NCBI GenBank assembly: GCA_900541245.1 | Contig: UQIS01000001.1 | Span: 25,495-89,494 of the forward strand | Direction: 5' to 3' | From: an uncultured Collinsella sp. | Lineage (GTDB): Bacteria; Actinomycetota; Coriobacteriia; Coriobacteriales; Coriobacteriaceae | Length of the DNA stretch: 64,000 nt | In this document: positions 18,305 to 38,821 of the stretch, piece after piece | Numbering within the stretch: the first letter of the stretch is position 1 | Layout: every line of letters begins with the position of its first letter | The notes under the pieces: model-generated | Databases searched by the model: none | Seen by the model: the letters and a program-made list of their open reading frames with translations, nothing else | What the model was told of the DNA's origin: nothing | Program-made: the position numbers and the translations under genes

Positions 18305-18345
18305 CTGCCAAAAAGGGACAGGTTTATTTTGGCAGGTTTTATCTG
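18305..18345 (+). terminator. hairpin between sngB-like and helicase genes (attenuator or terminator candidate)
   Basis: CCTGCCAAAA / TTTTGGCAGG inverted repeat followed by TTTTATCT. Confidence 0.3.
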
Positions 18346-18377
18346 GGCGAACGTTGAGACTGTAATGCAGCAAGCCG

Positions 18378-20864: not shown

Positions 20865-20891
20865 GACCAGTCCTTTTTGGGACGGGGAGAC

Positions 20892-21770
20892 TTACTTGTC
20901 GTGAAGGACGGTGCCGAGGAAGTCGGTGTCGAAGGGCACAGCTTCGGCAAAGGCGTAGTCGCCGTCGCTGGCGATGAGCAGATAATTCTCCTCGCCGCCG
21001 AACTCTGCATCGCCACATGGGACCACCCAGGCGTGGGCGAACACCTCGAGCGCCGTGGCGGCGCAATCGCGCAGGAACGTTACGTCGCTCCCCTCGTTTG
21101 CGCTCACGACATTGGCAACGTAGATACCCCCGGGGTTCAGGCTGCCTCGCACCAAACGCAACGCCTCAACCGTCGCCAGCTCGCGTACGGGCTCGACACC
21201 GCCAAAGCAATCGCTCACGACCACGTCGTAGCGACGATGGCCCACGCTCGTCACACCCAAATACGAGCGAGCCTCAGCGGTAATCACCCGCAAGCGGTCG
21301 CCCACCGCACGCTCCAGCTCGTCCAGGTAGAACCAGCGGCGCGCTAGGCGCGTAATCTCTCCGTCATACTCGATAACGTCCATGCACAAGTCCTCGTGCG
21401 ACATCAGCGCGAACTTGGGATAGGCAAACCCGCCGCCGCCCAGCATAAGCATGCGGTCGATACCGTGACCGTAAGCGTCGCGCATCGCATCCTCGGCCTC
21501 AAACACGTCGTCAAACGAACGATAGTACGTAAAGACGGGCTCCGCCCAACGCTCGCCAACGTAGCTTGCACTTTGGTAGACGCCGCCTTGTACCAATACG
21601 CGGACTTCGTCGCCGCCCTCGTCGTGCACGCGCTTCACACGCGCCAACCCATTGCGGGTTCGCGCAACCTGCAGACAGGCAGCACGAACAGCGACGGCGG
21701 CCGCACCAAGCGCCGCGGCTCCCAGAGCAACGCCGGCAACGACGCCGGCAGAAACACTCGGCTTGTTCAT
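20892..21770 (-). CDS. spermidine synthase-like (class I SAM-MTase fold) protein with N-terminal TM anchor
   Basis: N-terminal hydrophobic segment. MLMLGGGGFAYP glycine-rich motif and VVEYDGEI, typical of polyamine aminopropyltransferase-like proteins. Immediately follows elp3. Confidence 0.55.
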   Translation of the reverse strand: MNKPSVSAGVVAGVALGAAALGAAAVAVRAACLQVARTRNGLARVKRVHDEGGDEVRVLVQGGVYQSASYVGERWAEPVFTYYRSFDDVFEAEDAMRDAYGHGIDRMLMLGGGGFAYPKFALMSHEDLCMDVIEYDGEITRLARRWFYLDELERAVGDRLRVITAEARSYLGVTSVGHRRYDVVVSDCFGGVEPVRELATVEALRLVRGSLNPGGIYVANVVSANEGSDVTFLRDCAATALEVFAHAWVVPCGDAEFGGEENYLLIASDGDYAFAEAVPFDTDFLGTVLHDK

Positions 21771-23678
21771 CTAGAGCTCCTTTTGCAGATAAAGGCCATA
21801 GTCATAAAATCCAAGATGGCGATAGTACTCGCGCGTACCAATCGCGCTGATCACGTTGATGCGCGCATAGCCCGCGTCCCGAGCAATATGGCACGCACGC
21901 TCCACCAGCGACCGTCCCAATCCATGGTGCTGGGCTGCCTGGCCTTGATCCCCCACGCGCGCCGCCATGCCATACACGTGTACCTCGCGAATCATCGCCT
22001 CGTCCGGCATCGTCGGCAACTCGTCCGCATGTGCGGCAACAAAAGCGCGAACGGGCAGCGACAGACGCAAAAAGCCGGCGATCTTGCCTTCGGGCGTCAC
22101 CCACTGCAAAAAGCGTTCACGCGTCACCGGCGTCTCGTACGCCACCTCCTCATCAAGAGAAAGCTCATCCAAGTCGGCACCCGCCGTACTGATCTCGCGA
22201 TAGCGAATCTCGCGCACCGTCGCACCGTCACCCCGAGCAGCCAGGCGGTTCTCAACGAGCTGACGCAGGTTGGGTTTCTTGTTGCCCACCATAATGTCGT
22301 CGGAGCTAAAGTCGCGGATCATGCGGCTGATGCGGCAGAACGCCGGCGTCACCACGATGTCGTCGGCCAGCACATCGAGCAGTTCTTCCTCGGTATAGGG
22401 GCGCCACTCGCCGCGCTCATAGCGGCCCACCAGACGCGAGCCCTCGATGAGCGCGCACGGGTAGACCTTGACCTCGTCGGGCATAAAGGCCCCCTCGGTC
22501 ATAAAGCGCTCGTAGTCGCGCTTGTCCCCCTCGGGCGTGGCGCCCAGCAAGTTGAGCATAAAATGCGCGTGGATCTTAAAGCCAAACAGACGCGCAAGCG
22601 AAAACGCCCGCTCGATCTGAGCCACCGAAATGCGACGCTCGTTGATATCGAGCAGGTGCTGGTTGAGGCTCTGGATGCCCATCTGAATCTTGGTGCAACC
22701 CAGGCGGCGGATAAGCGTGAGCGCCTGGGGCGTCACGGCATCGGGGCGCGTCTCGATAACGAGCCCCACCACGCGATGCTTCGCCGTCTCGTTGATGCGC
22801 TGCTGACGCTCAAGCTCCTCCATCGTTGCCGTCTGCCACTCAGTGACCTCGCCCCACGGCGTACCGGGACCGTACAGACGACGCACCGCACGGTTATAGC
22901 CGCCCACGGCAGCATCCACACGCCCCTGCTCGTCGGCAACGCCGGCAGCAAGCTCGACCTCGTCTGTCGCAATGCCGGCGGCCCGATAGCGCTCACGGCG
23001 CTCCGCTACCACAGGCGGCAGGGCATCGGCGGGAGCGTCATCGAGCAGACGCCCCGCCTCGGCACGGCTGATGCCCGGACGTGCCAACATGGGGTTGGCC
23101 GCCACGCCGGCGACGGCATCGTCATTGAGTGCACGGAAAAGCTCCGACATAAACCATGTCTGATAGCCTTCCGGATAGTCGCTCCAGGTACCGCCAAGCA
23201 CAATGAGCTCGATCTTATCGGTCGCATGCCCCATCTGCGAAAGCGCGGTCAGGCGAGCGCTCACCTGCAGATACGGGTCAAAGCAATTTTGCTCCGCACG
23301 GGCGCATGCCGGCTCGGCGTGCAGATAGCTCTTGGGCATGCGCAGATCGTTGGGGCAAAACAGGCAATCGCCCGAGCATGGCCAGGGCTTGGTAATGACG
23401 GTAATGGTCGCCACGCCCGAGGCCGTTCGGCGCGGCTTCATACGCAGGACCTGCAACAGTTGACGCTCCAGATCGGAATCGACATTCCACGCAGCCCACC
23501 GAACCGGCTCCTCACGTTTAACCCGCTGGTAGAACGGCAGCAGACGGCGCTTGGCCAAATCGCGTTTGTCGGCACCCTCACGGCGCGCCTCGGCATGTAT
23601 CAGTTTGACGAGCGCTTTGTCGTCCACGGTCTCGCCGCGACGCAGGGCCTCGAGTATGTTCAAGATAATCTGTTCCAT
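21771..23678 (-). CDS. elp3: Elp3-family radical SAM/GNAT acetyltransferase
   Basis: CSGDCLFC radical-SAM cysteine motif near the N-terminus and a C-terminal GNAT domain (RHLGFYDYGLYLQKEL). 635 aa. Confidence 0.8.
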   Translation of the reverse strand: MEQIILNILEALRRGETVDDKALVKLIHAEARREGADKRDLAKRRLLPFYQRVKREEPVRWAAWNVDSDLERQLLQVLRMKPRRTASGVATITVITKPWPCSGDCLFCPNDLRMPKSYLHAEPACARAEQNCFDPYLQVSARLTALSQMGHATDKIELIVLGGTWSDYPEGYQTWFMSELFRALNDDAVAGVAANPMLARPGISRAEAGRLLDDAPADALPPVVAERRERYRAAGIATDEVELAAGVADEQGRVDAAVGGYNRAVRRLYGPGTPWGEVTEWQTATMEELERQQRINETAKHRVVGLVIETRPDAVTPQALTLIRRLGCTKIQMGIQSLNQHLLDINERRISVAQIERAFSLARLFGFKIHAHFMLNLLGATPEGDKRDYERFMTEGAFMPDEVKVYPCALIEGSRLVGRYERGEWRPYTEEELLDVLADDIVVTPAFCRISRMIRDFSSDDIMVGNKKPNLRQLVENRLAARGDGATVREIRYREISTAGADLDELSLDEEVAYETPVTRERFLQWVTPEGKIAGFLRLSLPVRAFVAAHADELPTMPDEAMIREVHVYGMAARVGDQGQAAQHHGLGRSLVERACHIARDAGYARINVISAIGTREYYRHLGFYDYGLYLQKEL

Positions 23679-23697
23679 GTCCCCATTGTAAAGGCAA

Positions 23698-23731
23698 AGG
23701 CGCCGGAGCCGATCTCGGCTTCGGCGCCTTC
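23698..23731 (-). terminator. terminator hairpin downstream of the DUF4097 gene
   Basis: GGCGCCG...CGGCGCC with a nested AGCCGATCTCGGCT palindrome. T-rich on the minus strand. Confidence 0.45.
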
Positions 23732-23775
23732 ATCAAAGAGCATGCCTATATGTACCGATCTCCGAAAACCGCATG

Positions 23776-24678
23776 TCACTCCGGATCAAACGACATGTCG
23801 CCCGAACCGACCTCGAAACGATACGTAGCAGACTTATCGCCGTTGTCGAATTCAAGATTCAATATGGTCTCGCCATCGTAGCCAAGCGGAAGGAAATCGC
23901 TCTCGAAGTCACCGCTGCCCACGGTGAGGCTCGCCTTAAAGCCCGTAGAGTTCGGAACCGTCATCTCCACATCGCCCGAGTCCACGCTTACGTCCATCGA
24001 CTTCGCGGGGGCCTGGTAGAGCTCGAACGTCACATCGCCCGAACCGACCTCAGCACTGAGCGCATCAGTCACGCTGCCCGCAAACTCTACATCTCCCGCA
24101 CCCAGGAAAAGGTCGAAACCATCACAGGTGACACCGGCAATCTGCAGATCACCCGAGCCCACGTGCGCGTTGACTCCCTTCAGATGTTCGGCAACACGGC
24201 GCGGCAGCTCGACCGTAACTGAGCGATCGATTGCCTTACCGTCATCACTTCCAAACTGGGAAACCTTGAGCGTCGAGTCCTCGACGGATGCGATGTTCTG
24301 CGTCGCGGCCTTGGAGGCATCCATACCATTGGCAACGCGTCCCCGCTCGATAACGCGAGCCTTGTTACCATCAATAACCTTGACGTCCACCGTAGCCGCA
24401 TCGATATCGAAATCGAGGTAGCGAAACTCATCGGCATCAAAGGTCGTACACGAAAGCTGCTGAGGCCGAGCGGAATAGTTACCGCCATCGTTCATAAAAT
24501 CGTCGTCATCAACCACATCGTCCATACCGGACAAGCCGGGTATAACATCGTCGAGATCCCACGGGCCATCAAAATGAATCAAAGTCCGCGAAACGCCAAA
24601 AACAAGCCCGATAATCAGTACAAACGCTCCGATGCCGACGCCCAGGCGCAGCTTGGATTCATGCGAAAGCTTCATCAT
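23776..24678 (-). CDS. DUF4097-family beta-repeat protein (YvlB-like putative adhesin) with N-terminal TM
   Basis: Repeated VGSGD/GAGD motifs (VGSGDLQ, GAGDVEF, VGSGDVTF, DSGDVEM, VGSGDFES, VGSGDMSF), characteristic of DUF4097. Confidence 0.7.
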   Translation of the reverse strand: MMKLSHESKLRLGVGIGAFVLIIGLVFGVSRTLIHFDGPWDLDDVIPGLSGMDDVVDDDDFMNDGGNYSARPQQLSCTTFDADEFRYLDFDIDAATVDVKVIDGNKARVIERGRVANGMDASKAATQNIASVEDSTLKVSQFGSDDGKAIDRSVTVELPRRVAEHLKGVNAHVGSGDLQIAGVTCDGFDLFLGAGDVEFAGSVTDALSAEVGSGDVTFELYQAPAKSMDVSVDSGDVEMTVPNSTGFKASLTVGSGDFESDFLPLGYDGETILNLEFDNGDKSATYRFEVGSGDMSFDPE

Positions 24679-26654: not shown

Positions 26655-27494
26655 ATGGGAGCCGTCCACGTTCGCACGCCTAAGAACTTTGTGCTCGAGG
26701 AGCGCCTGGAGCGCTACGCCGATGCGATTGAGACGAACCCCGAGGCCTATGCCGGAGATTGGCGTGAAGTCTGTGCGCCAGTTGGCAGCAAGCCATTCGA
26801 ACACCTTCACCTGGATCTTGGCTGCGGCAAGGGAACGTACCTTGTAGAGCGCGCGGCCCACGAGCCAAACACGCTCTTTATCGGCATGGACCAAGAGCCC
26901 ATCTGCATCGCCTATGCCGCACAGAAAATCTGCGAGCATGAGCTGACCAACGCACTCGTTCTGCCTCGAGGCGCCGCATCGCTGCCGCAGCTATTTGCCA
27001 CAGGCGAGCTCGATGCCATCACCATCAACTTTCCCACGCCGCAGCCCAAGGCCAAGTACGCCAAAAAGCGCCTCGTCCATGTCGACCATCTGATGCTCTA
27101 TCGCCCGCTCTTTGCAGCCGGCGCCACCGTAACGCTGCGAACCGACAGCAAACCGTTGCGCGATTACGCCCTGGGACAGTTTGCCGCAGCCGGCTACGAT
27201 ACGCTTTGGGTAAGTGACGACGTCCGCCGCGACCATCCCGAGCATCCCGAGACCGAATATGAATGCCGCACGCGCGAGATGGGCGCCGCCGTCTATGGCA
27301 TTTGCGCTACGCCCGGCGCGGAACCCATCGAAGAGCAGCTCGCGGCGGGCCGCGCGCAGGAGCAAAGCCTTGCCTGCTACCTGCCCGAAAACCTCGATGA
27401 GCTCACCTACGTGCCTCTCGGCATGGAAGAGGCCGTCGAGAACTTCAGAAACCGTGCCCGCAAGGGCAAGAAGCGCCTGCCGCAAGAGTCCTAG
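26655..27494 (+). CDS. trmB: tRNA (guanine46-N7)-methyltransferase
   Basis: AAGGAG RBS. LDLGCGKGTYL SAM motif and TrmB-typical layout. 279 aa. Confidence 0.8.
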   Translation: MGAVHVRTPKNFVLEERLERYADAIETNPEAYAGDWREVCAPVGSKPFEHLHLDLGCGKGTYLVERAAHEPNTLFIGMDQEPICIAYAAQKICEHELTNALVLPRGAASLPQLFATGELDAITINFPTPQPKAKYAKKRLVHVDHLMLYRPLFAAGATVTLRTDSKPLRDYALGQFAAAGYDTLWVSDDVRRDHPEHPETEYECRTREMGAAVYGICATPGAEPIEEQLAAGRAQEQSLACYLPENLDELTYVPLGMEEAVENFRNRARKGKKRLPQES

Positions 27495-27559
27495 GGGCTT
27501 CTGATGGTCGCGGCGTCAGCAAATAAGCGCGAATAGGCGCCAGCAAACAACCCTCAAAC

Positions 27560-27682
27560 CTAAGTGAGTAGACTTTTTTGCAATAGCCAAGCACAACCCG
27601 CATAACGAAAACTAAAACCGCAGATAGAACCCTTGTGCAAAATCCATGTGCTCGCGACATCGCAAAAAGTCTACTCACTTAG
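27560..27682. mobile_element. MITE-like element copy 1 (about 123 bp, 21-22 bp terminal inverted repeats)
   Basis: CTAAGTGAGTAGACTTTTTTGC at 27560-27581 and its reverse complement GCAAAAAGTCTACTCACTTAG at 27662-27682. The same TIRs recur at about 37279-37401 and 38698-38821. Confidence 0.6.
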
Positions 27683-27803
27683 CTGGCAACTGCACCAAAC
27701 GGCCGGGCAGAACGCCCATTTCCTGCATTTTCTTGCCTGCAAACGCATCGATGCGCCGCTACGCCATAATAGTTGGCGGACAATCGCGAGAGAAAGCAAC
27801 CAC

Positions 27804-30485
27804 ATGGCACAGACCACGACAGATACCGCCGCCAGCACCGTCTCCGGCGCCGGCGCCGCCAGCTCATTCTCGGGCGGCACGGGAACCGAAGCCGAGTTTG
27901 GCTCGCTCGGCGCGCTCTCCCCCACCTGGTGGAAGCCCGAGGACGGCAGCGAGCCCGAACCGTGGCTCACGCCCGATCAAGCCTTCGAACGCTTCTTTGA
28001 ATGGACGAGCGATCGCGGCATTGAACTGTGGGATCACCAAGAAGAGGCCCTCATGGACCTGGCTGCCGGCGATCACGTCATTTTAGGCACACCGACCGGA
28101 TCGGGTAAATCGCTCGTCGCGCTGGGCATGCTCTTTATGGGCATGGCGCAGGGCAAGCGCTGCTACTACACGGCTCCCATCAAGGCTCTGGTCAGCGAGA
28201 AGTTTTTCGACCTTGTGCAGGTGCTCGGCCGCGATAACGTAGGCATGATTACCGGCGACACGCATATCAACACCAAGGCACCCGTCATCTGCTGCACGGC
28301 AGAGATCCTTGCCAACGACGCACTGCGCGAGAGCGAAGATGCCGACGTGGGCTGCGTGGCCATGGACGAGTTCCACTACTTTGCCGACCCCGACCGCGGT
28401 TGGGCTTGGCAGGTGCCGCTGCTCACCCTGCCCCACACGCAATTCATGCTCATGAGCGCCACGCTCGGCGATGTCACTGCCATCGCCGCCTCACTCGAGG
28501 AACACACCGGTGCTACCTGCGACTTGGTCGTCGATGCCCCGCGCCCCGTGCCGCTGAGCTACGACTACGTGACGACCTCCCTCGAGGGCACGGTCGAGCT
28601 CGCCATGCGCCGCGGCGAGGCCCCGCTCTATATCGTGCACTTTAGCCAGGATGCCGCCCTTGCAACGGCACAGTCGCTCGCCAATTTTGGCATCGCCAGC
28701 AAGGAGCAGCGCGAGGCCATCAAAGAAGCGGCAAAGGGGACGAGCTTCTCCACGGCCTTTGGTAAGATTCTCAAACGCCTGGTTGGATGCGGCGTCGGCG
28801 TGCACCATGCCGGCATGTTGCCGCGCTATCGCCTGCTGGTGGAGCGCCTGGCGCAGCAGGGCCTGCTGCCCGTCATCTGCGGCACCGATACGCTCGGCGT
28901 CGGCATCAACGTACCCATCCACACCGTGGTACTCACCGCGCTCACCAAGTTCGACGGCTACAAGATGCGTCGCCTGCGCGCCCGCGAGTTCCATCAGATT
29001 GCCGGTCGCGCCGGCCGCTCGGACTTCGATACCGAGGGCATGGTCATCGCCGAGGCCCCGGAGCACGAGATCGAGAACGCCAAACTCATGGCCAAGGCGG
29101 GCGACGACCCCAAGAAGCTCCGCAAGATTAAAAAGAAGAAGGCCCCCGAGGGCTTTGTCACCTGGAACAAGCAGACCTTTGAGCGCCTGATCGAGACGCA
29201 GCCCGAGACGCTCAAGCCGCGCCTTCGCATCACGCACTCCATGGTGATTAGCGTGGTCGAGCAGGGCGGCGATGCCCGAGCCCGCGTACACGACCTCATC
29301 GAGACGAGCTTGCAGACCCCCGAGGAAAAGGCCAAGCTCGAGGTTCGCGCCGACGAAATCTTCGCCACGCTCATCGATTCCGGCGTCGTCGTTCGCACCG
29401 AGGTGCCGCCCGCGCCCGACGCCCCGACTGACGCCGCGCTAGACATCGACTATGCACTGACGGTCGATCTGCCCGAGGACTTTGCGCTCGACCAGCCGCT
29501 CTCGCCGTTTTTGCTTGCCGCGCTGGAGCTGCTCGACCCCGAGAGTGAGACCTATACCATGGATCTGATCTCGATGGTCGAGGCAACGCTCGAGGACCCC
29601 AAGCAGGTATTGCGCGCGCAGGAGCGCGCCGCGCGCGACCGCGCGATGGCCGAAATGAAGGCTGACGGCGTCGAATATGAGGAGCGCCTGGAGCGCATCC
29701 AGGATGTCACCTACGAAAAGCCGCTCGAGGACTTGCTCGATGCCGCCTTCGACAAGTACTGCCAAGAAGTACCTTGGGCCAACGACTACCAGCTCTCGCC
29801 CAAGAGCGTCCTGCGCGACATGCTGGAGAGCGCGAGCGACTTTAAGGGCTATATCCAAAAGCTCGGCATCGCCCGCTCCGAGGGCATTTTGTTGCGTTAC
29901 CTGGCAGAGGCCTACCGTTCACTCGACCGCACCGTGCCCATCGAGAAGCGCGACGAGCGCCTGCGCGACATTATCTCGTGGCTGGGCTTTGTGGTGCGCT
30001 CGGTGGACTCGAGCCTGGTGGATGAGTGGGAGAACGCCGGCAACCCGGCAGCCCTCGATGCTGCGCCGCCGCAGGGCATCGACGAGGTCGTGGCGGACCG
30101 TCGCGGCTGCACGCTATTGGTGCGCAACGCGCTCTTCCGCCGCGTGACCCTTGCCGCCCGCGAGCACGTTCGCGACCTGGGCGAGCTCGACGACGACTGG
30201 GGCATGAGCGAGATCCGCTGGCAAAAAGCACTCGACGCTTACCAAGAGCAGCACGAGGAAATCCTCACCGACGGAGATGCCCGCAGCGCCGCGATGTTTT
30301 CCATTGACGAGTCCGACGAGAAGACCGCGCACGTATGGCACGTGCACCAGATCTTTGCCGACGAGGATGGCGACCACGATTTTGGCATCATGGGCGATGT
30401 CGATCTGGACGCCACGCAAGACGGCGGCGAGGTCATCTTCAAAAACTACCGCGTCGGCTTTATCGAGGACCTGCTCGAGGACTAG
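27804..30485 (+). CDS. superfamily-2 DEAD/DEAH-box helicase with long C-terminal domain (DUF3516-type architecture)
   Basis: Internal ATG at 27804 (MAQTTTD...). The upstream in-frame part overlaps the MITE. Motif I (GTPTGSGKS), motif II (VAMDEFHYF), motif III (LMSATLGD) and a helicase-C region. Confidence 0.75.
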   Translation: MAQTTTDTAASTVSGAGAASSFSGGTGTEAEFGSLGALSPTWWKPEDGSEPEPWLTPDQAFERFFEWTSDRGIELWDHQEEALMDLAAGDHVILGTPTGSGKSLVALGMLFMGMAQGKRCYYTAPIKALVSEKFFDLVQVLGRDNVGMITGDTHINTKAPVICCTAEILANDALRESEDADVGCVAMDEFHYFADPDRGWAWQVPLLTLPHTQFMLMSATLGDVTAIAASLEEHTGATCDLVVDAPRPVPLSYDYVTTSLEGTVELAMRRGEAPLYIVHFSQDAALATAQSLANFGIASKEQREAIKEAAKGTSFSTAFGKILKRLVGCGVGVHHAGMLPRYRLLVERLAQQGLLPVICGTDTLGVGINVPIHTVVLTALTKFDGYKMRRLRAREFHQIAGRAGRSDFDTEGMVIAEAPEHEIENAKLMAKAGDDPKKLRKIKKKKAPEGFVTWNKQTFERLIETQPETLKPRLRITHSMVISVVEQGGDARARVHDLIETSLQTPEEKAKLEVRADEIFATLIDSGVVVRTEVPPAPDAPTDAALDIDYALTVDLPEDFALDQPLSPFLLAALELLDPESETYTMDLISMVEATLEDPKQVLRAQERAARDRAMAEMKADGVEYEERLERIQDVTYEKPLEDLLDAAFDKYCQEVPWANDYQLSPKSVLRDMLESASDFKGYIQKLGIARSEGILLRYLAEAYRSLDRTVPIEKRDERLRDIISWLGFVVRSVDSSLVDEWENAGNPAALDAAPPQGIDEVVADRRGCTLLVRNALFRRVTLAAREHVRDLGELDDDWGMSEIRWQKALDAYQEQHEEILTDGDARSAAMFSIDESDEKTAHVWHVHQIFADEDGDHDFGIMGDVDLDATQDGGEVIFKNYRVGFIEDLLED

Positions 30486-30509
30486 CCGAACATACTGGAA
30501 CGAAACGAA

Positions 30510-30547
30510 GCGGGGCCGCTGGCAATATAGCCAGCGGCCCCGCTTTT
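30510..30547. terminator. bidirectional terminator between convergent helicase and DUF2130 genes
   Basis: 13-bp perfect stem GCGGGGCCGCTGG / CCAGCGGCCCCGC followed by TTTT. Confidence 0.55.
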
Positions 30548-30564
30548 GCGCGATACGCTATCCC

Positions 30565-32322
30565 CTACTCGGTATCCTCGACCTCATACGAATCCGCCTC
30601 GGCTGGCTCATCGTTTGTCTCTGTCGCAGCCCCGCGCGCCTCGTCAAACGCGGCCTTCATGGTCTTGTTGCCCCACGTGAGCTTGCGAATGGTAAGATCG
30701 TCGGCCTTCTTGTTGGCTAGGCGCAGATTGTTCTCGGAGGACAGCAACGCCTCCTTGGTTTTCTGCAGATGGCTAATCGTCTTGTCGATCTCATCAATCG
30801 CCGTTTGGAACTTGCGGCTCGCGATCTCGTAGTTGCGACCGAAATCATTCTTGAACTTTTCCATCTTGGCTTCGAAGTTCGTGACGTCGATATTCTGCTG
30901 TTTGTACTCCGCCAGTTCCTGCTTATAGCGCAGCGAACCCATGGCGGCGTTGCGAAGAAGCGTGATCATGGGAATAAAGAACTGTGGGCGAATCACGTAC
31001 ATCTTCTCGTAGCGATAGCTCACGTCCACGATGCCGGCGTTGTAAAGCTCGCTCTCGGGCTCGAGCAGCGTGCAGAGCACCGCGTACTCACAGCCTTTCT
31101 GGCGACGATCGTGATCGAGTTTCTTAAAGAAGTCCTCGTTTTTATGCTTGGTCGCGGTCTCGTCGTTCTCGTTTTTCATCTCGAACATAATCGAAATGAC
31201 CTCGTTGCCGCTTGCGTCGCACTCGCGGAAGATAAAGTCGCCCTTGGTACCCTCGGACGCATCGTTATCTTTCTCGAAGTACGCGTTAGGAAACGCCGTC
31301 ATGCGCAGGCGATTGAACTCGGTCTCGCAGTGCTGCTCGAGTGACTCGCCCACCATCTTGGTGGACAGGCGGACCTTCATGTCCTTAAGGCGCTCAATCT
31401 CTTCATCCTTGTAGCGAATCAGGTCATCGCTCGCGCGCTTGGCCTGCGCGAGCTCGAGCTCATGCGCCGCCTTGGCCTGTTCCTCGCGAGAATCGCGCAC
31501 CGCCAGCTCACTCGTCAGCTTGGCACGTGCCTCATCGCGCTCTCGCTCCGCCGCGGCGACCGCCTCTGACAGGTTCATTTTTGCCATCAGTTCCTGCTCG
31601 CGCAGCTGGGCACGCAGACCCTCGGCCTCTTGCTCAGATTGTGCCTTTGCGACGGAAAACTTCTCCTGTACCGTCGCGCGGTAGTCAGCAAGCACGCGCT
31701 CGGCCTCGCTGCGAGCGGCATCGAGCTCACGCTGCGACTCTGCCGCGGCAGCGGCAAGCGCCATCTCCTGGGCCTTGTCAGCCGCGGCAAGCCTGGCCTG
31801 CAGCTCGGCAATCTGAGCATCACGTGCAGCTAAATCGTTTTGAGCAGCGTTGCGCGCCGCCGACTCGGCAAGCTTGGCTTCGTCATCTTTGCATCCCAGC
31901 TGCGCACGCAAATTGTCGATCTCGCGCTGAAGCTCAGCATTCTCCTTCTGAGCATCGGCACGGGCCTCAACCGCCGCACGCTGACTTGCGCTCTCGCGCT
32001 CTGCGGCAGCGCCCTCGAGCTTGGCGCGCAACTCGGCAAGCTCGGCATCGCGCTTGGCGACCTCTTGTGCCAGCTGCTGAGCTGCAGCGTTCTTCTGCTC
32101 GACAAGCTGAGCGTTGCGCTGAGACTCTGCCTTTTGCAAGGCAGCCGTCGAACGCGAGCGCTCAAGCTCCAGCGCCTGCTCGCCCTCGCGCTGGACCGCC
32201 TTCACACGCTCGTCCAGGTCGCGCGAAAACTCGGCATCGCGTACTTGCTTGACGATATCCGCATAGCCGGACGCATCGACCTTAAAAACTTCGCCGCAAT
32301 GCGGGCACTTAATCTCGTTCAT
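30565..32322 (-). CDS. DUF2130-family protein: N-terminal Zn-ribbon, long coiled coil, C-terminal putative PD-(D/E)xK nuclease-like domain
   Basis: [16 protein letters not shown] zinc ribbon. About 300 aa of Ala/Glu/Arg/Gln-rich heptad-like sequence. C-terminal GESLEQ...KGDFIFRE...[10 protein letters not shown], which fits an E-D-ExK pattern. Confidence 0.6.
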
Positions 32323-32380
32323 AGCAGCTCCTCGATGGACGCAAATTTCGACCGCCTACACTCTACCGCGCCGCACGGAC

Positions 32381-32462
32381 AAAAAAGGCGCCGCTGCCAT
32401 AATGGCAACGGCGCCAGAGCCACCACAAAGGTGCCTGTCCCCTTTGTGGTGGCTCTGGCGCC
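32381..32462 (-). terminator. tandem hairpins (22-bp perfect stem plus a short stem with T-tract) between phosphoesterase and DUF2130 genes
   Basis: GGCGCCAGAGCCACCACAAAGG / CCTTTGTGGTGGCTCTGGCGCC. Then GGCGCCG...CGGCGCC followed on the minus strand by TTTTTTG. Confidence 0.5.
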
Positions 32463-33008
32463 CTATAACCCAAAGAAGCTAAGAATCTGATCACGGCTTA
32501 CGGGCTTGTACTCGTTGGCATCGAGACCGACATCGTAGCGAAAGATAGGGCGCTCGCGATCGCGGTTGCGCACGTTGGTGCGGTCTCCCCTGCTGTGGAT
32601 ATGCCCGTGCAGCATGACGGCGCCACGCGCCTTGCCGTTCCAGCTGAGCATGGGGTAATGGCTCAACACCAGGCGATGGCCCTTGGCATAGCCGGGAGCA
32701 ATCTCCAGGTAATCGCGCACGTCTTCCCAAATCTGCGGTACGTCGGGATCTTCCCAGTCGCCGTCATGGTTACCACGGATGAGCGTCACGTTCTGACATT
32801 CGATACGCTCGCGCAGACGCACCGCCTCCGCCAGGGGCAAACGATAGGTAAAGTCTCCCAAGATATAGAGACGGTCGTCCGCCGCCACGCACTCATTGAC
32901 GGCATCGATGACCTTGCGGTTCATCTCCTCGACCGAATCAAACGGCCGATCCATATCGTGCAAGATATTCGTATCGCCCAGGTGCAGGTCGGCGGTAAAC
33001 CACATCAT
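32463..33008 (-). CDS. calcineurin-like metallophosphoesterase (YfcE/MJ0936-type)
   Basis: Motifs DLHLGD, ILGDF, RGNHD, HGHIH. 181 aa. Confidence 0.75.
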   Translation of the reverse strand: MMWFTADLHLGDTNILHDMDRPFDSVEEMNRKVIDAVNECVAADDRLYILGDFTYRLPLAEAVRLRERIECQNVTLIRGNHDGDWEDPDVPQIWEDVRDYLEIAPGYAKGHRLVLSHYPMLSWNGKARGAVMLHGHIHSRGDRTNVRNRDRERPIFRYDVGLDANEYKPVSRDQILSFFGL

Positions 33009-33074
33009 CGTCTATGTCCTCATTTCGCAACGCGTCAAACTCGTGCTAAGTATACAGACACAGCGATACGGCGG

Positions 33075-33254
33075 TTAGCCAAAGAGCCCGCCGAACGGGC
33101 CGCGACTGCGTTTGCCTTGCTTTTTCGAAGCGTTACCCTGAGTTTTCTTGTCCCGCCGTTTCTTACGGTCCTGTTCCAGATCATCGTCGTCGAGCAGCAG
33201 ATCCCACTCAAACGGATCATCCGTTAAATCGAACAGGTCATCGTCGTCAAACAT
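33075..33254 (-). CDS. small (59 aa) acidic-then-basic hypothetical protein
   Basis: AAGGGAAG RBS 5 nt upstream of the ATG. Sequence MFDDDDLFDLTDDPFEWDLLLDDDDLEQDRKKRRDKKTQGNASKKQGKRSRGPFGGLFG. Lies between the HIRAN and phosphoesterase genes. Below the ORF-track length cut-off. Confidence 0.3.
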   Translation of the reverse strand: MFDDDDLFDLTDDPFEWDLLLDDDDLEQDRKKRRDKKTQGNASKKQGKRSRGPFGGLFG

Positions 33255-33272
33255 GGCAGCTTCCCTTACCGA

Positions 33273-33599
33273 CTAGCGAGCATCCACCACATAGAGCCCA
33301 ACGCGCACCTGATGCCACGGGCTGCGCTCGGGGGCAACCTGTTGCACACGGGCCTCAAATACGTCCTCGTGGCCGTAATACATCATCAAGGACAGTGGGC
33401 CGACCTCGTTTCCCGGAACGTAGCCAAGTTTGGTCTTGCCATAGTAGATAGCAACTGCCTCGGGGTCATGGGGATTATCGCGCTCGGCACACAGCGTCAG
33501 TTTATCGCCCGCTTTAAGATCGCCTAGGACCAAAGCGCCATCGGCATACTGAAATCCTGCAATGTGAAATGACAGAAGAACACGTGAAGGCTCGTACAT
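33273..33599 (-). CDS. standalone HIRAN-domain protein
   Basis: HIAGFQYADG...GDKLTLCAERDNPHDPEAVAIYYGKTKLGYVP...PLSLMM matches the HIRAN core pattern (GxxY...L.RE.xNxxDxNA..V......lGYv). 108 aa. Confidence 0.65.
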   Translation of the reverse strand: MYEPSRVLLSFHIAGFQYADGALVLGDLKAGDKLTLCAERDNPHDPEAVAIYYGKTKLGYVPGNEVGPLSLMMYYGHEDVFEARVQQVAPERSPWHQVRVGLYVVDAR

Positions 33600-33721
33600 A
33601 GCAACTCCCCTAACGGCCGGATAAACCGGCGCTTAACCTTATTGAGAAGTCTACGAACTCGTGCGGACACAAATTCATCCCGCCTGTGCCTTTCGACCGT
33701 TTGTCGCTACGCCATCTGATT

Positions 33722-35101
33722 CTAATGCACAAACATGCGCACGAATTTGTGCTTCCAGCTTGCGTAGGGCGCATACCGAAACGGCACGTCCAGCCAGGTT
33801 GCCTTGTTCACGATGCTCTTCTTGTGGCTAAACGTATCGAAGCTCTCGCGGCCATGGTACTGCCCCATACCGCTCGCGCCCATGCCGCCAAAGCCCATAT
33901 GGCTCGTAGCCAAGTGCATGATGGTGTCGTTGACGCAGCCGCCGCCAAAGGGCACGTAGCGCACAAAGCGTTGCTGAACCGAACGGTCCTGGCTAAAGAT
34001 ATACAGGGCCAGCGGCGTCGGACGATCCGTAATAAACGCTTCGGCCTCGTCAAGGCTCTCAAACGTCAGCACTGGCAAAATGGGGCCGAAGATCTCCTCC
34101 TGCATCACGGCGTCATCGGGGGACACGCCGTCCAAAATCGTCGGCTCGATCTTGAGCGAGGCCTCGCGCGCGGTACCTCCAAGCACGACCTTATCGGGAT
34201 CGATCAGCCCGCGCACGCGCGCAAAATGCTTGGCGTTGACAATATGACCGTAGTCCTCGTTATCGAGCGGATACTCGCCAAACATACGGCGGACCTCCTC
34301 CTTGATGAGGCCCAGCAGCTCGTCGTGCACGCGCGTATCGACCAGCAGGTAGTCGGGCGCCACGCAGGTCTGCCCCACGTTGAGCCATTTACCAAAGGCG
34401 ATACGCCGTGCCGCAACCTTCAAGTTTGCCGTCGCATCCACGATGCAGGGACTCTTTCCGCCCAGCTCAAGCGTCACAGGCGTAAGGTTTTTACTTGCGC
34501 GCTCCATAACGAGTTTGCCGACCGGAACGCTACCGGTAAAGAAGATCTTGTCCCAGTGCTCATCGAGCAGCGCTTCGTTCTCGGCGCGCCCGCCCTCGAC
34601 AACCGTCACCAGGCGCGGATCAAATGCCTCTTCACAGATTTGCCTGAGCACCGCGCTCGATGCCGGAGCATAGGCGCTCGGCTTGATGACCACGGTATTG
34701 CCCGCGGCAAGGGCGCCAGCGAGCGGCTCGAGCGTCAGCAAAAACGGATAGTTCCAGGGCGCCATGATGAGCGTGACGCCATAGGGCACGGTTTGCGTTT
34801 TGCACACGCTCACGGCGTTAGCGAGGTCGCACGGACGCAGGCGCGGACGACTCCATCGAACCACGTGAGCGATCTGATGTCGAATCTCGGAAAGCGATGT
34901 GCCAATCTCGCACATATAGGCCTCGTCATGCGACTTTCCCAAATCGGTCTTGAGCGCATGAGCGATATCGGCCTCGTGGGCCCGCACCGCATCGCGTAAA
35001 CTCACGAGCGCGCGACGTCGAGCATCGACATCAAACGTGGCGTGCGTCTTAAAGTAGGCGCGCTGATCGCCGACGATGCGCGCAATTTCCTCGGTGTTCA
35101 T
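33722..35101 (-). CDS. NAD(P)-dependent aldehyde dehydrogenase (class 3-like)
   Basis: ELGGKSP motif and catalytic Cys context GQTCVAPDY. 459 aa. Confidence 0.85.
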   Translation of the reverse strand: MNTEEIARIVGDQRAYFKTHATFDVDARRRALVSLRDAVRAHEADIAHALKTDLGKSHDEAYMCEIGTSLSEIRHQIAHVVRWSRPRLRPCDLANAVSVCKTQTVPYGVTLIMAPWNYPFLLTLEPLAGALAAGNTVVIKPSAYAPASSAVLRQICEEAFDPRLVTVVEGGRAENEALLDEHWDKIFFTGSVPVGKLVMERASKNLTPVTLELGGKSPCIVDATANLKVAARRIAFGKWLNVGQTCVAPDYLLVDTRVHDELLGLIKEEVRRMFGEYPLDNEDYGHIVNAKHFARVRGLIDPDKVVLGGTAREASLKIEPTILDGVSPDDAVMQEEIFGPILPVLTFESLDEAEAFITDRPTPLALYIFSQDRSVQQRFVRYVPFGGGCVNDTIMHLATSHMGFGGMGASGMGQYHGRESFDTFSHKKSIVNKATWLDVPFRYAPYASWKHKFVRMFVH

Positions 35102-35110
35102 GGCACCCTC

Positions 35111-36331
35111 CTAGTTCTCGTCCTCAAACATACCACCCGCGACGACCTCGTACATATGCTCGAGCTCCGAGCGGTCCATCAAAAGTGGAACGGGGTACAG
35201 GGGATTGGCCTCGGCATCGGCATGGGCCGCCATTTGCGGAATATCGGAGCGGCGAATACCCGAGACATATTTGGGGATTCCCAGGGCCTCGTTCATGCGG
35301 TCGACCCAATCGATAAAGGCCTCGGCCGCAAGACTGTCCTGCGCGGTAGCCGGCGCAATGCCCGCCATGCGAGCAAGATCGGCAAGCTTGGGGGCGGCGG
35401 CGTCACCATAAGCGCGAAGCATGTGCGGCAGGATGATCGCGTTGGCCAAACCGTGCGGAATTCCGTATCGGCCGCCTAGACTGTGCGCGATGGCATGAAC
35501 GTATCCAACATAGGAGCGCGTAAAGGCAACTCCCGCCTTATACGCCGCCGAAAGCATATTGCGACGCGCACGCATGTCGTCGCCATGCTCATAGGCCTCG
35601 AGCAAATTGTCGTGGATGAGCTGCACCGCCTGTCGCGCCATCTTGCGCGTATAGGGCGTGGTGCTTCGCCCGATAAACGCCTCGACGGCATGCGTCAGGG
35701 CGTCCATGCCCGTCTGCCCCGTAATGGAGGCGGGCAGACCGCGCGTAAACTCGGGGTCGTGCGCCGCAAAGCGCGGGATAAGCACAAAGTCGTTAATGGG
35801 ATACTTGTAGTGCGTCTCGTCATCGGTAATTACCGCCGCGAGCGTGACCTCGCTTCCCGTGCCCGCCGTGGTGGGAACGGCGATGAGCAGCGGCAGGCGA
35901 CGATGAATCCGCAGCAGCCCGCGCATCTTGTTGATGGGCTTGCTTGGCTGCGCAATGCGTGCGCCCACGCCCTTGGCGCAGTCCATGGCTGATCCTCCGC
36001 CAAAACCGATAATGGCCTGGCAGGCGCGCTCTCGATACAGGGACGCCGCCTCCTCCACATTCGAGACCGTGGGGTTCGCACGCGTTTCGGCATAGACCGT
36101 AACGCCAATCCCCTGAGCCGTAAGCGCACGCTCGAGTGATGCCGTGAGTCCCAAACGTGCAATACCAGGGTCTGTCACGATAAGGACCTTCTGGATCGAG
36201 CGCTTTTGAAGCACCGCGGGCACATCCTCGGCATGCTCCAGAATGCGCGGCTCGGTATAGGGCAGGATCGGCAATGCAATGCGAAAAACCGTCTGATATG
36301 TTCGGCACCAGGCACGACGGGCTAGATGCAT
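35111..36331 (-). CDS. iron-containing (group III) alcohol dehydrogenase
   Basis: An internal ATG with AAGGAG RBS at 36331 gives a 406-aa protein. GGGSAMD NAD-binding motif and His-rich metal site (HAIAHSLGG...PHG). Confidence 0.8.
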   Translation of the reverse strand: MHLARRAWCRTYQTVFRIALPILPYTEPRILEHAEDVPAVLQKRSIQKVLIVTDPGIARLGLTASLERALTAQGIGVTVYAETRANPTVSNVEEAASLYRERACQAIIGFGGGSAMDCAKGVGARIAQPSKPINKMRGLLRIHRRLPLLIAVPTTAGTGSEVTLAAVITDDETHYKYPINDFVLIPRFAAHDPEFTRGLPASITGQTGMDALTHAVEAFIGRSTTPYTRKMARQAVQLIHDNLLEAYEHGDDMRARRNMLSAAYKAGVAFTRSYVGYVHAIAHSLGGRYGIPHGLANAIILPHMLRAYGDAAAPKLADLARMAGIAPATAQDSLAAEAFIDWVDRMNEALGIPKYVSGIRRSDIPQMAAHADAEANPLYPVPLLMDRSELEHMYEVVAGGMFEDEN

Positions 36332-36587
36332 AAAGGAAACTCCTTCATTTGTTGATAGGTCAACATTTGCTCGCCCGATTGTACTCAGCAAAAATCGCAG
36401 ACGGCCTCCCAATCGTTAATCAATCAACATCTTCATATCTCGAAATTGTTTTATTAAAAATCATTCCTAATAGGCTTCACATTTGGTTGCATTTATGGAT
36501 AATAGAACTCGTCAAGACGCACGTCCGGAGAGGGCCCTTACGGGACCGGACGAGCGCACAATCGCCATCGATCGAAAGGATCGAATC

Positions 36588-37148
36588 ATGAAGTTTGTTT
36601 GCCCCGTTTGCGGTTATGTGGAAGAGTTCGACGGCGACCAGCTGCCCGAGGACTTCAAGTGCCCCCAGTGCGGCGTTCCCGGTTCTCGTTTCCTGAAGCA
36701 GGAGGAGGGCCAGCTCGAGTGGGCTGCCGAGCACGTCGTGGGCATCGCCAAGATGGAGGGCGTCTCCGAGGACATCGTTGCCGACCTGCGCGCCAACTTT
36801 GAGGGCGAGTGCTCCGAGGTCGGTATGTACCTGGCCATGGCTCGCGTCGCCCATCGCGAGGGTTATCCCGAGATCGGCCTGTACTGGGAGAAGGCTGCCC
36901 ACGAGGAGGCCGAGCACGCCGCCAAGTTCGCTGAGCTCCTGGGCGAGGTCGTGACCGACTCCACCAAGAAGAACCTCGAGATGCGCGTTGAGGCCGAGAA
37001 CGGCGCCACCGCCGGCAAGACCGATCTTGCTAAGCGCGCCAAGGCCGCTGGCCTCGATGCCATCCACGACACCGTGCACGAGATGGCTCGCGACGAGGCT
37101 CGCCACGGCAAGGCTTTCGCCGGCCTGCTCAAGCGCTACTTCGGCTAA
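36588..37148 (+). CDS. reverse rubrerythrin (N-terminal rubredoxin-like CxxC pairs plus ferritin-like diiron domain)
   Basis: [11 protein letters not shown]...CPQCG, then E..EH diiron motifs ([14 protein letters not shown]). Start moved to an internal ATG with AAAGGA RBS. Confidence 0.8.
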
Positions 37149-37278: not shown

Positions 37279-37401
37279 CTAAGTGAGTAGACTTTTTGGA
37301 ACTTGCCGAGCAGACCATCCATATCACTTTATAAAGCCGCAGGTAAATGCCTTGTTGCAAAACGACCTAGTCGCCAAAGTGCCAAAAGTCTACTCACTTA
37401 G
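37279..37401. mobile_element. MITE-like element copy 2
   Basis: TIRs CTAAGTGAGTAGACTTTTT (37279-37297) and AAAAGTCTACTCACTTAG (37384-37401). The interior is about 85% similar to copy 3. Confidence 0.6.
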
Positions 37402-38523
37402 ATTCGCAGCCGTCCACGATCGAGCCATTTTGTGTCTAACGGGCATCTTTCCGTCGATTACTCCCAATTTTGTCCAGTCAACGAATAGTTCAGACCTGAG
37501 TAATGTCTCAGCCCTTTGCTCATCTGAGCTTTTATCACGATATTCAGCATCGAGCATCCTGCATACGGCCTTAACGATCGCGCGGAATCTATCCTCATCC
37601 GATATCTGTCTGTGTGTCAGGAGAAGCACATCGTAGCCCATGGCCTGAAGGGCCGTCATGCGGTCAGCGTCACGCAAGCCATCCCCTGCGCGTCCGTGCG
37701 AGGCCTTTCCCTGACATTCAATGGCCACCTGTCGCCTGCCGTCCGGCGAAGACAGAAGTATGTCGATATATACACGGGACTTTCCCACAATCGCTCGAGC
37801 ACTTGTGCTTAGCATCACTTCAACATTAAGCTCTATGTCGCAAAAACCTTCGCCTCCCAGGGATCGCGGCAGTGCAAGTAGCAAATACGCCTCGACCTCA
37901 AAAGGCGACGCGGCACCCAATGGAACGAGTTGCGACACCGTCCTAAATCTATTGCCGTAACGTATCCCGCAAACATCTGAACAAAAACGGTCAAGGTCTC
38001 CGCCCAAAACCAAAGCGTCTCGACGCCATAAATTTGAGGCGGTGCCGTCCTCGGACGGGCAGCGCACCCAACCGAACGTTGTCGAGATCGCGCCCGAATC
38101 AATTGCACGCGAAAGCTCCGCCTCAAGTGCCGCAGGCAGAGCGCACACCGCAAACAAGCCACACATCTCCGCCAATACCAAAAGAAGCTGAAGATCCGTC
38201 AGATGCCGCGACATGATGAATACCGTCAGTAGAGGAGACGTAATCAAAAACCCATGCTCCGTTTCCAGTACGGATTCCCCGGGAAGCTCACCAAGAAACA
38301 GCCGCTGCCTAATGCTGGCAGGACAAGTCCGTTTGTTTCTCGTCTGAACCAATGTATACAACGGAAAACCGAGCGCGACCGCAGCCGTCGGGTTGCGGGC
38401 GAGATCATATCGCTGCCGGTCTTCTTCCGGTCGTGGAAGCGGCGGACACAGAGCGCGGACCTGAGGGGGCAAACGCCAGTACCTAAAAGCCGATATGTCA
38501 CAAAGTAGATCTTTCATAGGCAC
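37390..38523 (-). CDS. hypothetical protein with C-terminal DUF559 (Vsr/restriction-endonuclease-like) domain
   Basis: C-terminal VYIDILLSSPDGRRQVAIECQGKASHGRAGDGLRDADRMTALQAMGYDVLLLTHRQI. Visibly lower GC than its neighbours. The last three codons and stop lie inside the MITE TIR. Confidence 0.5.
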   Translation of the reverse strand: MPMKDLLCDISAFRYWRLPPQVRALCPPLPRPEEDRQRYDLARNPTAAVALGFPLYTLVQTRNKRTCPASIRQRLFLGELPGESVLETEHGFLITSPLLTVFIMSRHLTDLQLLLVLAEMCGLFAVCALPAALEAELSRAIDSGAISTTFGWVRCPSEDGTASNLWRRDALVLGGDLDRFCSDVCGIRYGNRFRTVSQLVPLGAASPFEVEAYLLLALPRSLGGEGFCDIELNVEVMLSTSARAIVGKSRVYIDILLSSPDGRRQVAIECQGKASHGRAGDGLRDADRMTALQAMGYDVLLLTHRQISDEDRFRAIVKAVCRMLDAEYRDKSSDEQRAETLLRSELFVDWTKLGVIDGKMPVRHKMARSWTAANLSE

Positions 38524-38697: not shown

Positions 38698-38821
38698 GAC
38701 AAGTGAGTAGACTTTTTTGAACATCCCGAGCAGCCCGGTCATCCTGCTTTTCAAAACCGCAGGTAGATAGCTTGTTACAAAACTGCCTGGTCGCCAAAGT
38801 GCTAAAAGTCTACTCACTTAG
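38698..38821. mobile_element. MITE-like element copy 3
   Basis: TIRs ACAAGTGAGTAGACTTTTTTG (one mismatch) and AAAAGTCTACTCACTTAG (38804-38821). The TIR supplies the last two codons and TGA stop of the pdxR-like gene. Confidence 0.6.

Follow-up and report, generated by a model that had tools for sequence, protein, structure and literature searches.

The window analysed here, i.e., the whole stretch of 64,000 nt of DNA from an uncultured Collinsella sp., harbours three copies of a repeat unit of 123 nt within 11 kb, all of them located in the intervals next to genes coding for a TrmB-like methyltransferase, a DUF3516 helicase, a rubrerythrin-like protein, a hypothetical protein of 375 amino acids and the MocR-type regulator PdxR (Table 1). 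PdxR is full length when compared to its NCBIfam model, and its gene adjoins pdxS/pdxT. Copy 1 lies 65 nt 3' of the stop codon of the methyltransferase gene and 121 nt 5' of the start codon of the helicase gene, and its orientation relative to the flanking genes is opposite to that of copies 2 and 3.

Table 1. Positions of the three copies, of their arms and central cores, and of the neighbouring genes, numbered from the first nucleotide of the window
Feature	Position	Strand	Context or remark
TrmB-like methyltransferase gene	26655-27494	+	Left neighbour of copy 1
Copy 1 (site 0), 123 bp	27560..27682	+	Interval between TrmB-like methyltransferase gene and DUF3516 helicase gene
Copy 1, left arm CTAAGTGAGTAGACTTTTT	27560..27578	+	TAA, TGA and TAG inward, in three different frames
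Copy 1, central core AAAACCGCAGAT	27614..27625	+	Unit positions 55-66
Copy 1, right arm	27664..27682	-	19-mer identical to left arm, on the minus strand
DUF3516 helicase gene	ATG at 27804, to 30485	+	Right neighbour of copy 1
Rubrerythrin-like gene	36483-37148	+	Left neighbour of copy 2; has its own hairpin and T-run 3' of the gene (by eye)
Copy 2 (site 2), 123 bp	37279..37401	+	Interval between rubrerythrin-like gene and 3' end of the 375-aa gene
Copy 2, left arm, 18 nt perfect	37279..37296	+	
Copy 2, central core AAAGCCGCAGGT	37333..37344	+	
Copy 2, right arm	37384..37401	-	Holds the TAG stop of the 375-aa gene (37390-37392, minus strand)
375-aa gene	37390..38517 (ATG at 38517)	-	Between copies 2 and 3, which are in direct orientation
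Copy 3 (site 3), 123 bp	38699..38821	+	Interval between start of the 375-aa gene and 3' end of pdxR
Copy 3, left arm, 16 nt perfect	38701..38716	+	Outermost two bases AC instead of CT; TAA lost
Copy 3, central core AAAACCGCAGGT	38753..38764	+	
Copy 3, right arm	38804..38819	-	Holds the TGA stop of pdxR (38814-38816, minus strand)
pdxR, MocR-type regulator gene	38814-40283	-	Right neighbour of copy 3

The copies are bounded by inverted arms of the form (CT)AAGTGAGTAGACTTTT. In the 64-kb window there are exactly six occurrences of the 16-mer AAGTGAGTAGACTTTT, which form three inverted pairs with a spacing of 87 nt, as compared to 0.15 occurrences expected by chance, and a number of six was reached in none of 100 shuffled sequences. 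The three units of about 123 bp with terminal inverted repeats are thus present where the preliminary description had placed them, except that copy 3, with its 3' end at 38821 as given there, starts at position 38699 and not at 38698. An arm length of 18-22 bp, as described at first, holds for copies 1 and 2 with perfect arms of 19 and 18 nt, respectively, but not for copy 3 with only 16 nt. A repeat finder joined the three units into a single family of 124 nt, with copy 3 being 82% and copy 1 69% identical to copy 2; the internal identity of about 85% originally assigned to copies 2 and 3 was accordingly too high, as it amounts to 82% over the whole unit and to about 75% without the arms. The core AAA(A/G)CCGCAG(G/A)T is found at unit positions 55-66 in all three copies; copy 1, which had been credited with the arms and patches of the core, has perfect arms and its core in register with copies 2 and 3. 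With 43-46% the G + C content of the elements is lower than that of the window (59.7%), and they contain no ORF but have stop codons in all frames at both ends.

With respect to gene expression, no sigma-70-like promoter was predicted in or next to any of the copies, and the proposed location of copy 1 in the promoter of the helicase gene, 121 nt upstream of the ATG, therefore finds no backing in these predictions. Likewise, none of the copies was predicted to contain an intrinsic terminator or to end in one, the T-run being located inside the stem and not 3' of it. As terminator hairpins of the flanking genes themselves precede the element on the left side at site 2 and at site 7 (see below for the numbering of sites), transcription through the element is not assured. 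In turn, two genes, pdxR (TGA) and the 375-aa gene (TAG), have their stop codons inside the arms.

Searching one genome per prokaryotic species with the pattern arm-N70-100-arm yielded at least 120 matching stretches which, among the matches listed, come from Collinsella, Coriobacteriaceae or gut bins, placing the window in a Collinsella aerofaciens-like genome. A profile search of 120 tiles (866 kb) together with the window, in sum about 930 kb of Collinsella loci, retrieved 149 full copies that cluster by their flanks into nine sites with 31, 30, 28, 26, 20, 5, 4, 3 and 2 members, so that there are at least nine sites in Collinsella genomes. The window copies represent sites 0, 2 and 3, respectively, which are occupied in essentially every sampled relative; for copy 1 (site 0), 31 of the loci fetched from Collinsella carry an orthologue. 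Copies at site 4 outnumber those at site 5 about fourfold in this sample. In addition, 80 metagenome contigs were collected via the PdxR protein, i.e., by a criterion independent of the arms, resulting in a second sample of 75 copies at site 3 and 63 copies at site 2; every contig reaching site 3 or site 2 carries the element there. The positions of the elements are orthologous across the Collinsella aerofaciens species complex. Taken together, the nine sites defined by their flanks and the at least 120 stretches demonstrate that the family is real and dispersed, yet small and located at orthologous positions. A restriction of the motif to the three places in the window, which the preliminary description had named as the finding that would speak for a local repeat, is at odds with the six further unrelated loci. 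The elements are a non-coding, hairpin-forming, low-copy repeat family of Collinsella with at least nine sites.

The genes next to the other sites code for YitT, GntR/UTRA, FtsX permease, LuxR, AAA ATPase and family-1 glycosidase proteins. Tandem, convergent and divergent intergenic settings are all occupied and the neighbouring genes are unrelated in function. A riboswitch-like cis-regulator was ruled out by the absence of a common function or orientation among these neighbours.

Comparison of the sites reveals a strictly organised unit. All nine sites have identical arms, and their interiors are 55-87% identical between sites in an almost gap-free alignment. The blocks conserved in it are the central core of the AAAACCGCAGGT type and an inner pair of complementary sequences, GCCGAGCAC / GTGCTCGGC, with imperfections at several sites. 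The length is 123 nt in 128 of the 138 copies of the PdxR-based sample and 123±1 nt in the family, with indels occurring nowhere but in the T-run and at three further columns of the alignment. The outer T:A is a paired position of the arms, which changes symmetrically to C:G at sites 7 and 8. Outside the arms, identity over 30 nt is at random level for all pairs of sites except for sites 1 and 6, which represent a segmental duplication including 50-100 nt of flanking DNA. Apart from this duplication, the arms mark the exact limits of homology between sites. In particular, copies at site 4 and site 5 are 87-92% identical but have unrelated flanks, the site 5 copies fall within the diversity of those at site 4, and in the alignment of a 92% identical pair homology begins at CTAAGTGAG and ends at CACTTAG. 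Thus, the unit is a discrete one that has been copied, or exchanged, from locus to locus. However, the site 3 copy of locus L059 has a mosaic interior resembling that of site 2, which indicates ectopic gene conversion between copies, and such conversion of copies already in place, rather than transposition, could explain the similarity of the site 4/5 pair as well.

As to the class of the element, we used the definition of bacterial MITEs given in PMC3184786 and PMC11602168. The family comprises dispersed copies whose homology ends at inverted repeats, and the inverted repeats (at least 10-15 bp), the small size (50-800 bp) and the lack of coding capacity likewise agree with this definition. 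However, inspection and comparison of the flanks did not reveal a target-site duplication of 2-10 bp at any of the nine sites. The outer CT...AG is an inverted pair and not a direct repeat, both sides changing together to C...G at sites 7 and 8, and a TA target duplication was ruled out by just this symmetric change from T:A to C:G. Some strains carry an insertion of an IS256-family element (Transposase_mut) inside the site 3 copy with an 8-bp duplication (CCGGCCTG), and since this duplication was readily seen, true duplications are detectable in these data. Among the checks that the preliminary description had proposed, the search for target-site duplications thus gave a negative result at all nine sites, and so did, in about 930 kb of Collinsella loci, the search for an IS with matching ends. 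The assignment as a MITE-like element mobilised in trans accordingly stands with respect to the inverted repeats, the size, the lack of coding capacity and the discrete dispersed copies, but not with respect to target duplication, and the family can thus not be firmly placed among the MITEs.

No clean empty site was found among the fetched loci. Some relatives lack the element at sites 5, 6 and 7, but there 190-550 nt of intergenic DNA are replaced, and as the entire intergenic segment differs no junction or target sequence can be read. Searches of the about 930 kb for solo arms, arm pairs at the distance of an IS and degenerate copies, by regular expression and by nhmmer --max, yielded neither additional full copies nor solo arms or such arm pairs, but only one truncated copy and weak matches resembling the interior. 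The only IS encountered in the Collinsella loci examined is the above IS256-family element, the ends of which are unrelated to the arms. It is located at the break of the site 3 copy in locus L127, and loci L029 and L145 share the junction sequence of L127 together with the 8-bp duplication, which rules out that these three truncated copies are products of excision or recombination of the element itself. The site 3 copy of locus L189 is also truncated but has a different breakpoint, with homology ending at window position 38759. In line with the initial statement that no transposase is present, 47 of the 50 large ORFs of the window (non-overlapping, at least 130 aa; E <= 1e-8 for 40 and E <= 1e-3 for seven ORFs) gave no match to a transposase family, i.e., all but those at 58940-59464, 62868-63380 and 63480-63962. 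A partner IS was not found in plasmid, phage and viral collections either.

The arms are conspicuous in two respects. The sequence CTAAGTGAGTAG contains TAA, TGA and TAG, one per frame, from the outside inward, and because the arms are inverted, stops in all frames are present at both ends of the element. Across both strands of the window, 12-mers with stops in all three frames exist at eight places, five of which are arms. Moreover, in the PdxR-based sample nucleotide diversity is 0.004-0.025 in the arms (calculated on 16 nt), whereas the interior reaches 0.08 and the flanks 0.054-0.086. Counted on the 12-nt core AAGTGAGTAGAC, four of 48 arm columns are polymorphic, in contrast to 68 of 190 in the interior (p = 9e-5) and 113 of 396 in the flanks (p = 1.6e-3), and the interior is as polymorphic as the flanks. 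The deficit is found at G/C columns, where none of 20 is polymorphic in the arms versus 102 of 285 (p = 3e-4), and is not significant at A/T columns, where the test is without power. The four polymorphic arm columns are all accounted for by the same base pair, A13:T, for which a change to A·C arose independently at sites 2 and 3. This change would give a G·U wobble in RNA of the minus strand, which is the strand transcribed with the adjacent genes at both sites. Judging from these patterns, the arms appear to be under purifying selection, which would be unexpected for a dead transposon and suggests co-option.

In folding predictions, whole units form long hairpins with -38 to -52 kcal/mol (z -3.7 to -7.8), and the minus strand is always more stable (-43 to -52 kcal/mol) because of G·U pairs. 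The 85-nt interiors on their own are at most sites no more stable than shuffled sequences (z -2.9 to +1.6), and the predicted stability of the entire unit is therefore due to the arms. Accordingly, RNAalifold retains only the arms and four inner pairs. When P1 and P2 were specified by hand, P1 was invariant and thus uninformative, P2 was paired to 75.6%, and the counts of pairs and pair types did not exceed those of shuffled controls, so that covariation was not above the control level. A generic strong stem is hence supported by the predictions; a specific structured RNA beyond the arms is not supported.

The 375-aa gene and its flanking copies 2 and 3 form an arrangement that is kept in all sampled relatives. 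Its product is a hypothetical protein found only in Collinsella, with a weak match to REase_MTES_1575 / DUF559 (E = 6e-6) that is below the Pfam cut-off (26.7 versus 38.2 bits). It has no NCBIfam family, no PADLOC family, no sequence match to solved structures, and neither a Y1-transposase nor any other transposase domain. A 39% identical paralogue in loci L020/L108 lacks flanking elements, which counts against an association of the gene with the repeats.

The family had been called novel, and in line with this nothing similar was found in the Rfam, plasmid, phage, viral and Escherichia coli collections searched. Rfam covariance models gave no match at gathering score over the window, and no curated Collinsella RNA motif matched; at E <= 10 over positions 27000-39500 only a plant miRNA model matched an element, with a score of 13.6 bits that carries no meaning. 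Using blastn, the element had no match in plasmid and phage collections. The same holds for E. coli, a carrier of ERIC, of which 5,426 complete genomes were searched with a word size of 11 and E <= 0.01. The arm 16-mer had six single matches in IMG/VR viral contigs, all without an inverted partner and consistent with chance. Full-text literature searches did not find a paper on repeats in Collinsella, and nothing relevant was found on all-frame stops at the ends of MITEs.

Amongst known repeats, ERIC is a 127-bp MITE with RNA-level effects on mRNA stability, ERIC-type repeats have TA flanks or target duplications, and MITE-type repeats in general can form RNA stem-loops, be co-transcribed at the 3' ends of genes and alter mRNA stability (PMC3184786). 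The Collinsella element resembles ERIC/IRU in its near-equal size (ERIC: about 127 bp), the imperfect palindrome with conserved ends and a variable interior, the intergenic location and the long predicted RNA stem-loop. However, it has no sequence similarity to ERIC, its host belongs to the Actinomycetota, class Coriobacteriia, and its outer T:A is a paired arm position without duplication. Like the Collinsella family, ERIC has a low copy number in some hosts, and its positions are largely conserved. We know of no transposase for ERIC either, and all-frame stops in the arms are to our knowledge not a described feature of it.

For Correia repeats there is evidence of mobility, and their hairpins are processed at the RNA level (PMC3184786). 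With the Correia/NEMIS elements of Neisseria, which are about 104-157 bp long and have inverted repeats of about 26 bp, the Collinsella family shares the size, the terminal inverted repeats, the lack of coding capacity, the intergenic location and the predicted folding into long hairpins, Correia elements often being co-transcribed. In contrast to Correia, with hundreds of copies, a TA duplication and strain-specific locations, the Collinsella family is known from about nine sites, lacks a duplication and shows no insertion polymorphism of a clean kind in the sampled loci. Long hairpins of Correia/NEMIS and their RNA-level processing were reportedly described by De Gregorio et al. REP/REPIN sequences are also hairpin-forming extragenic palindromes with vertical inheritance and fixed positions, they are kept by selection, as the Collinsella arms appear to be, and there, too, a single-copy gene lies between repeats. 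REPs are, however, GC-rich units of 20-40 nt with tens to hundreds of copies, and RAYT is a Y1 (IS200/IS605-like) transposase, whereas the Collinsella unit has 123 bp, is AT-richer than the genome and low-copy, and the 375-aa protein has no Y1 domain. The terminal inverted repeats, the small size and the lack of coding capacity are finally shared with MITEs derived from IS630, IS5 or IS256, but unlike for these no parent IS was found in the about 930 kb of Collinsella loci.

With all this in mind, we lean slightly towards the view that the elements are Collinsella-specific imperfect palindromes of 123 bp comparable to ERIC and Correia repeats, which spread as non-autonomous units, are now largely immobile and have arms that are kept because they are useful. 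As to the single parts of this view, a palindromic repeat of mobile origin is probable, and the family is now fixed in place and possibly co-opted. The units might have spread in the past by being moved in trans by an enzyme recognising the arms, without duplication of the target, or else by another precise copy mechanism, and would have reached their few intergenic sites before the C. aerofaciens complex radiated and, in at least one case, while it did so. At present they would be largely immobile, with an exchange of sequence between copies continuing. If ERIC and Correia repeats are taken as a guide, the perfect stem of 19 bp and its stops in all frames might be kept as useful wherever they are transcribed: the stops could release incoming ribosomes, and the strong hairpin in 3' UTRs or intergenic RNA could modulate read-through, processing or stability. 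A further-reaching version, which we consider possible but unlikely, regards the unit as a domesticated module, in which the invariant arms would be read by a dedicated partner, be it a protein acting on DNA or on an RNA or single-stranded DNA hairpin, possibly the 375-aa nuclease-like protein, and in which the stops together with the 123-bp geometry would form a bidirectional insulator between neighbouring genes, which would put an end to translation and give shape to transcripts or to DNA transactions.

Alternatively, the unit might be a cis-acting DNA site of the host, i.e., a 123-bp platform of fixed geometry for a sequence-specific protein or complex that would serve DNA architecture, recombination or regulation, and new copies of the site would arise by ordinary recombination. 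This is tenable at a similarly low level of probability: the arms are identical at nine sites and under-polymorphic in situ while the interior drifts, the length is 123±1 with the core at 55-66 in every copy, the same positions are kept in different species, sites 1 and 6 have been duplicated as a segment together with their flanks, arm-less sequences resembling the core are present 5' of the LuxR gene at site 7 and in the surroundings of the GntR gene at site 5, and several neighbours are regulators (PdxR, GntR and LuxR). However, the neighbours are without a common function and occur in tandem, convergent and divergent settings, the sharp boundary of homology from arm to arm would rather be expected of an element that is copied in one piece, and the low G + C content suggests foreign or selfish DNA. 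Moreover, solo cores are no commoner than by chance in the window (six matches versus 4.3 expected); for the same reason the core motif was rejected as a widespread operator. A structured RNA that depends on a conserved fold of the 123 nt, be it the product of a small RNA gene or a regulator in cis, is considerably less probable and in our opinion doubtful, even though the predicted hairpins of the minus strand are very stable (-43 to -52 kcal/mol) and the sole common arm polymorphism, independent at sites 2 and 3, would retain a G·U wobble in this strand. This is because helix 1 is invariant and without a covariation signal, helix 2 is paired to only 75.6% with counts at control level, the interior folds no better than shuffled sequences at most sites and is as polymorphic as the flanks, no Rfam family was matched even at E <= 10, promoter- or terminator-like signals are lacking in or next to the copies, and the orientation to the genes is inconsistent, copy 1 being opposite to copies 2 and 3.

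It is also conceivable, albeit highly improbable, that the single-copy 375-aa nuclease-like gene and the repeats form a system like REPIN/RAYT, with the protein as the cognate enzyme recognising arms or hairpins and maintaining the family. The gene lies between the two most similar window copies, which are in direct orientation, it has the same narrow host range in Collinsella as the repeats, the arrangement is conserved in all sampled relatives, and the weak match to REase_MTES_1575 (E = 6e-6) is of the PD-(D/E)xK nuclease type. However, with 26.7 as compared to 38.2 bits this domain match fails the Pfam cut-off, the protein has no transposase domain, structure match or PADLOC family, its 39% identical paralogue (L020/L108) lacks a flanking element, no such gene is found near the other seven sites, and about nine known sites contrast with hundreds of REPIN copies. 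Finally, there is next to no likelihood of a chance similarity or a purely local triplication, for which the occurrence of only three copies in the window, all within 11 kb, might be taken to speak: against it are the six exact 16-mers versus 0.15 expected, the six further loci and the at least 120 stretches.

Collinsella is among the most prevalent and most species-rich actinobacterial genera of the human gut, and apparently no interspersed repeat family has been described for it before. The family therefore offers a handle on the make-up of intergenic DNA in Collinsella as a mosaic of small hairpin repeats, as well as on sites of recombination and rearrangement, as illustrated by the gene conversion between copies and by the IS256-family insertion inside a copy. 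Two features deserve attention, namely the apparent selection on arms with all-frame stops and the strictly fixed length. Should the ERIC- and Correia-like interpretation favoured above be reduced to a decayed MITE, the family would be an ordinary addition to a well-known class. It may, however, be an ERIC-like case in which the ends are kept by selection at fixed loci, which bears on the long-standing debate as to whether repeats of this kind are junk or have been co-opted. The arms with their stops in three frames, moreover, offer a simple idea for a natural insulator of translation and transcription, and if the reading as a domesticated module were true, the elements would constitute a cassette of a stop in every frame plus a hairpin that is undescribed for other bacterial repeats.

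A copy of the 123-bp element occupying site 3, the flank-defined position of copy 3 in the window, has in one fetched Collinsella locus (L059) an interior that is mostly site-2-like, with 8% divergence from a site-2 copy, and still has a site-3 patch. As judged from the sequences, this mosaic structure indicates gene conversion between the site-2 and site-3 copies, which lie 1.4 kb apart.

In some strains copy 3 is interrupted by an IS256-family element (Transposase_mut, E = 2e-98) flanked by an 8-bp target duplication, CCGGCCTG, and it is because of this insertion that copy 3 is truncated in three fetched loci (L029, L127 and L145); in L127 a different locus adjoins the far side of the insertion. 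The ends of the IS256-family element are imperfect (GG..GCGC..GTGGTGTAAGAG) and unrelated to the arms of the 123-bp element. The 375-aa nuclease-like protein encoded between copies 2 and 3 has a 39% identical paralogue about 6 kb from site 1, a position outside the window, and no elements flank this paralogue in either locus in which it was located (L020 and L108).

About 150 nt upstream of the LuxR-type regulator gene adjoining site 7, conserved stretches (TATAAACCCGCAGGTCA.., about 25 nt) resemble the element centre and lack the arms; even element-less relatives (79% protein identity) keep them. The GntR/UTRA regulator gene adjoining site 5 lies between two further solo cores of this kind. 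The arm-less stretches, which show no overall enrichment, may represent a binding site.

Coordinates of repeats, genes and insertions in the window and in fetched Collinsella loci (L-numbers)
Feature	Position	Strand	Remark
Mosaic site-3 copy	L059 6849-6971
IS256-family insertion in copy 3	L127 2991-about 4500; L029 about 400-517; L145 from 5255
Paralogue of 375-aa protein	L020 6515-7561; L108 33-878	-; +
Arm-less core-like stretches	L019 7410-7487; L207-L218 about 2809-2879; L036 2766-2789, 3606-3616	-; +; +
Defence-island-flavoured cluster	window 15246-23828	+	TerB_N/TerB_C protein; BrxC/BrxD-like ATPase (E = 3e-149); DEAD/DEAH helicase; 156-aa and 810-aa ORFs
Hairpin CCTGCCAAAAAGGGACAGGTTTATTTTGGCAGGTTTTATCTGG	window 18304-18346	+	exact copy, directly 3' of BrxC/D-like gene
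Hairpin family, further copies	L001 3757-3805; L019 6290-6330; L036 2270-2450; many other loci
Palindromes I23 and I24	window 41990-42045; 42115-42183		directly 3' of pdxT
Direct-repeat array (CCGCCACGGTCGCCACCGCGACCGCC...)	window 42263-42484		within ORF 42244-43095 (-)
Tandem duplication	window 60800-61800; 62840-63770		78-90% identity

Among the other features of the window, the 156-aa and 810-aa ORFs of the defence-island-flavoured cluster are without Pfam matches, as are the large ORFs in the tandemly duplicated segment of about 2 kb (repeat families D1, D2, D9 and D13, spacing 2038-2041). The two near-perfect palindromes, which have arms of 27-28 nt with 86-89% complementarity and loops that measure 2 and 13 nt, are likely bidirectional terminators. 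In the dense, GC-rich array, overlapping direct repeats of 45-47 nt recur with a 9-21-nt period. The protein segment that the array encodes is probably of low complexity and Gly/Arg-rich; the ORF containing the array has no Pfam match.

A second small repeat family consists of a terminator-like hairpin of about 45 nt, with 52 copies spread over 40 fetched Collinsella loci, and a hairpin copy frequently lies a few hundred nt or less from the 123-bp element. The intergenic DNA of Collinsella looks like a mosaic of modules such as these two.
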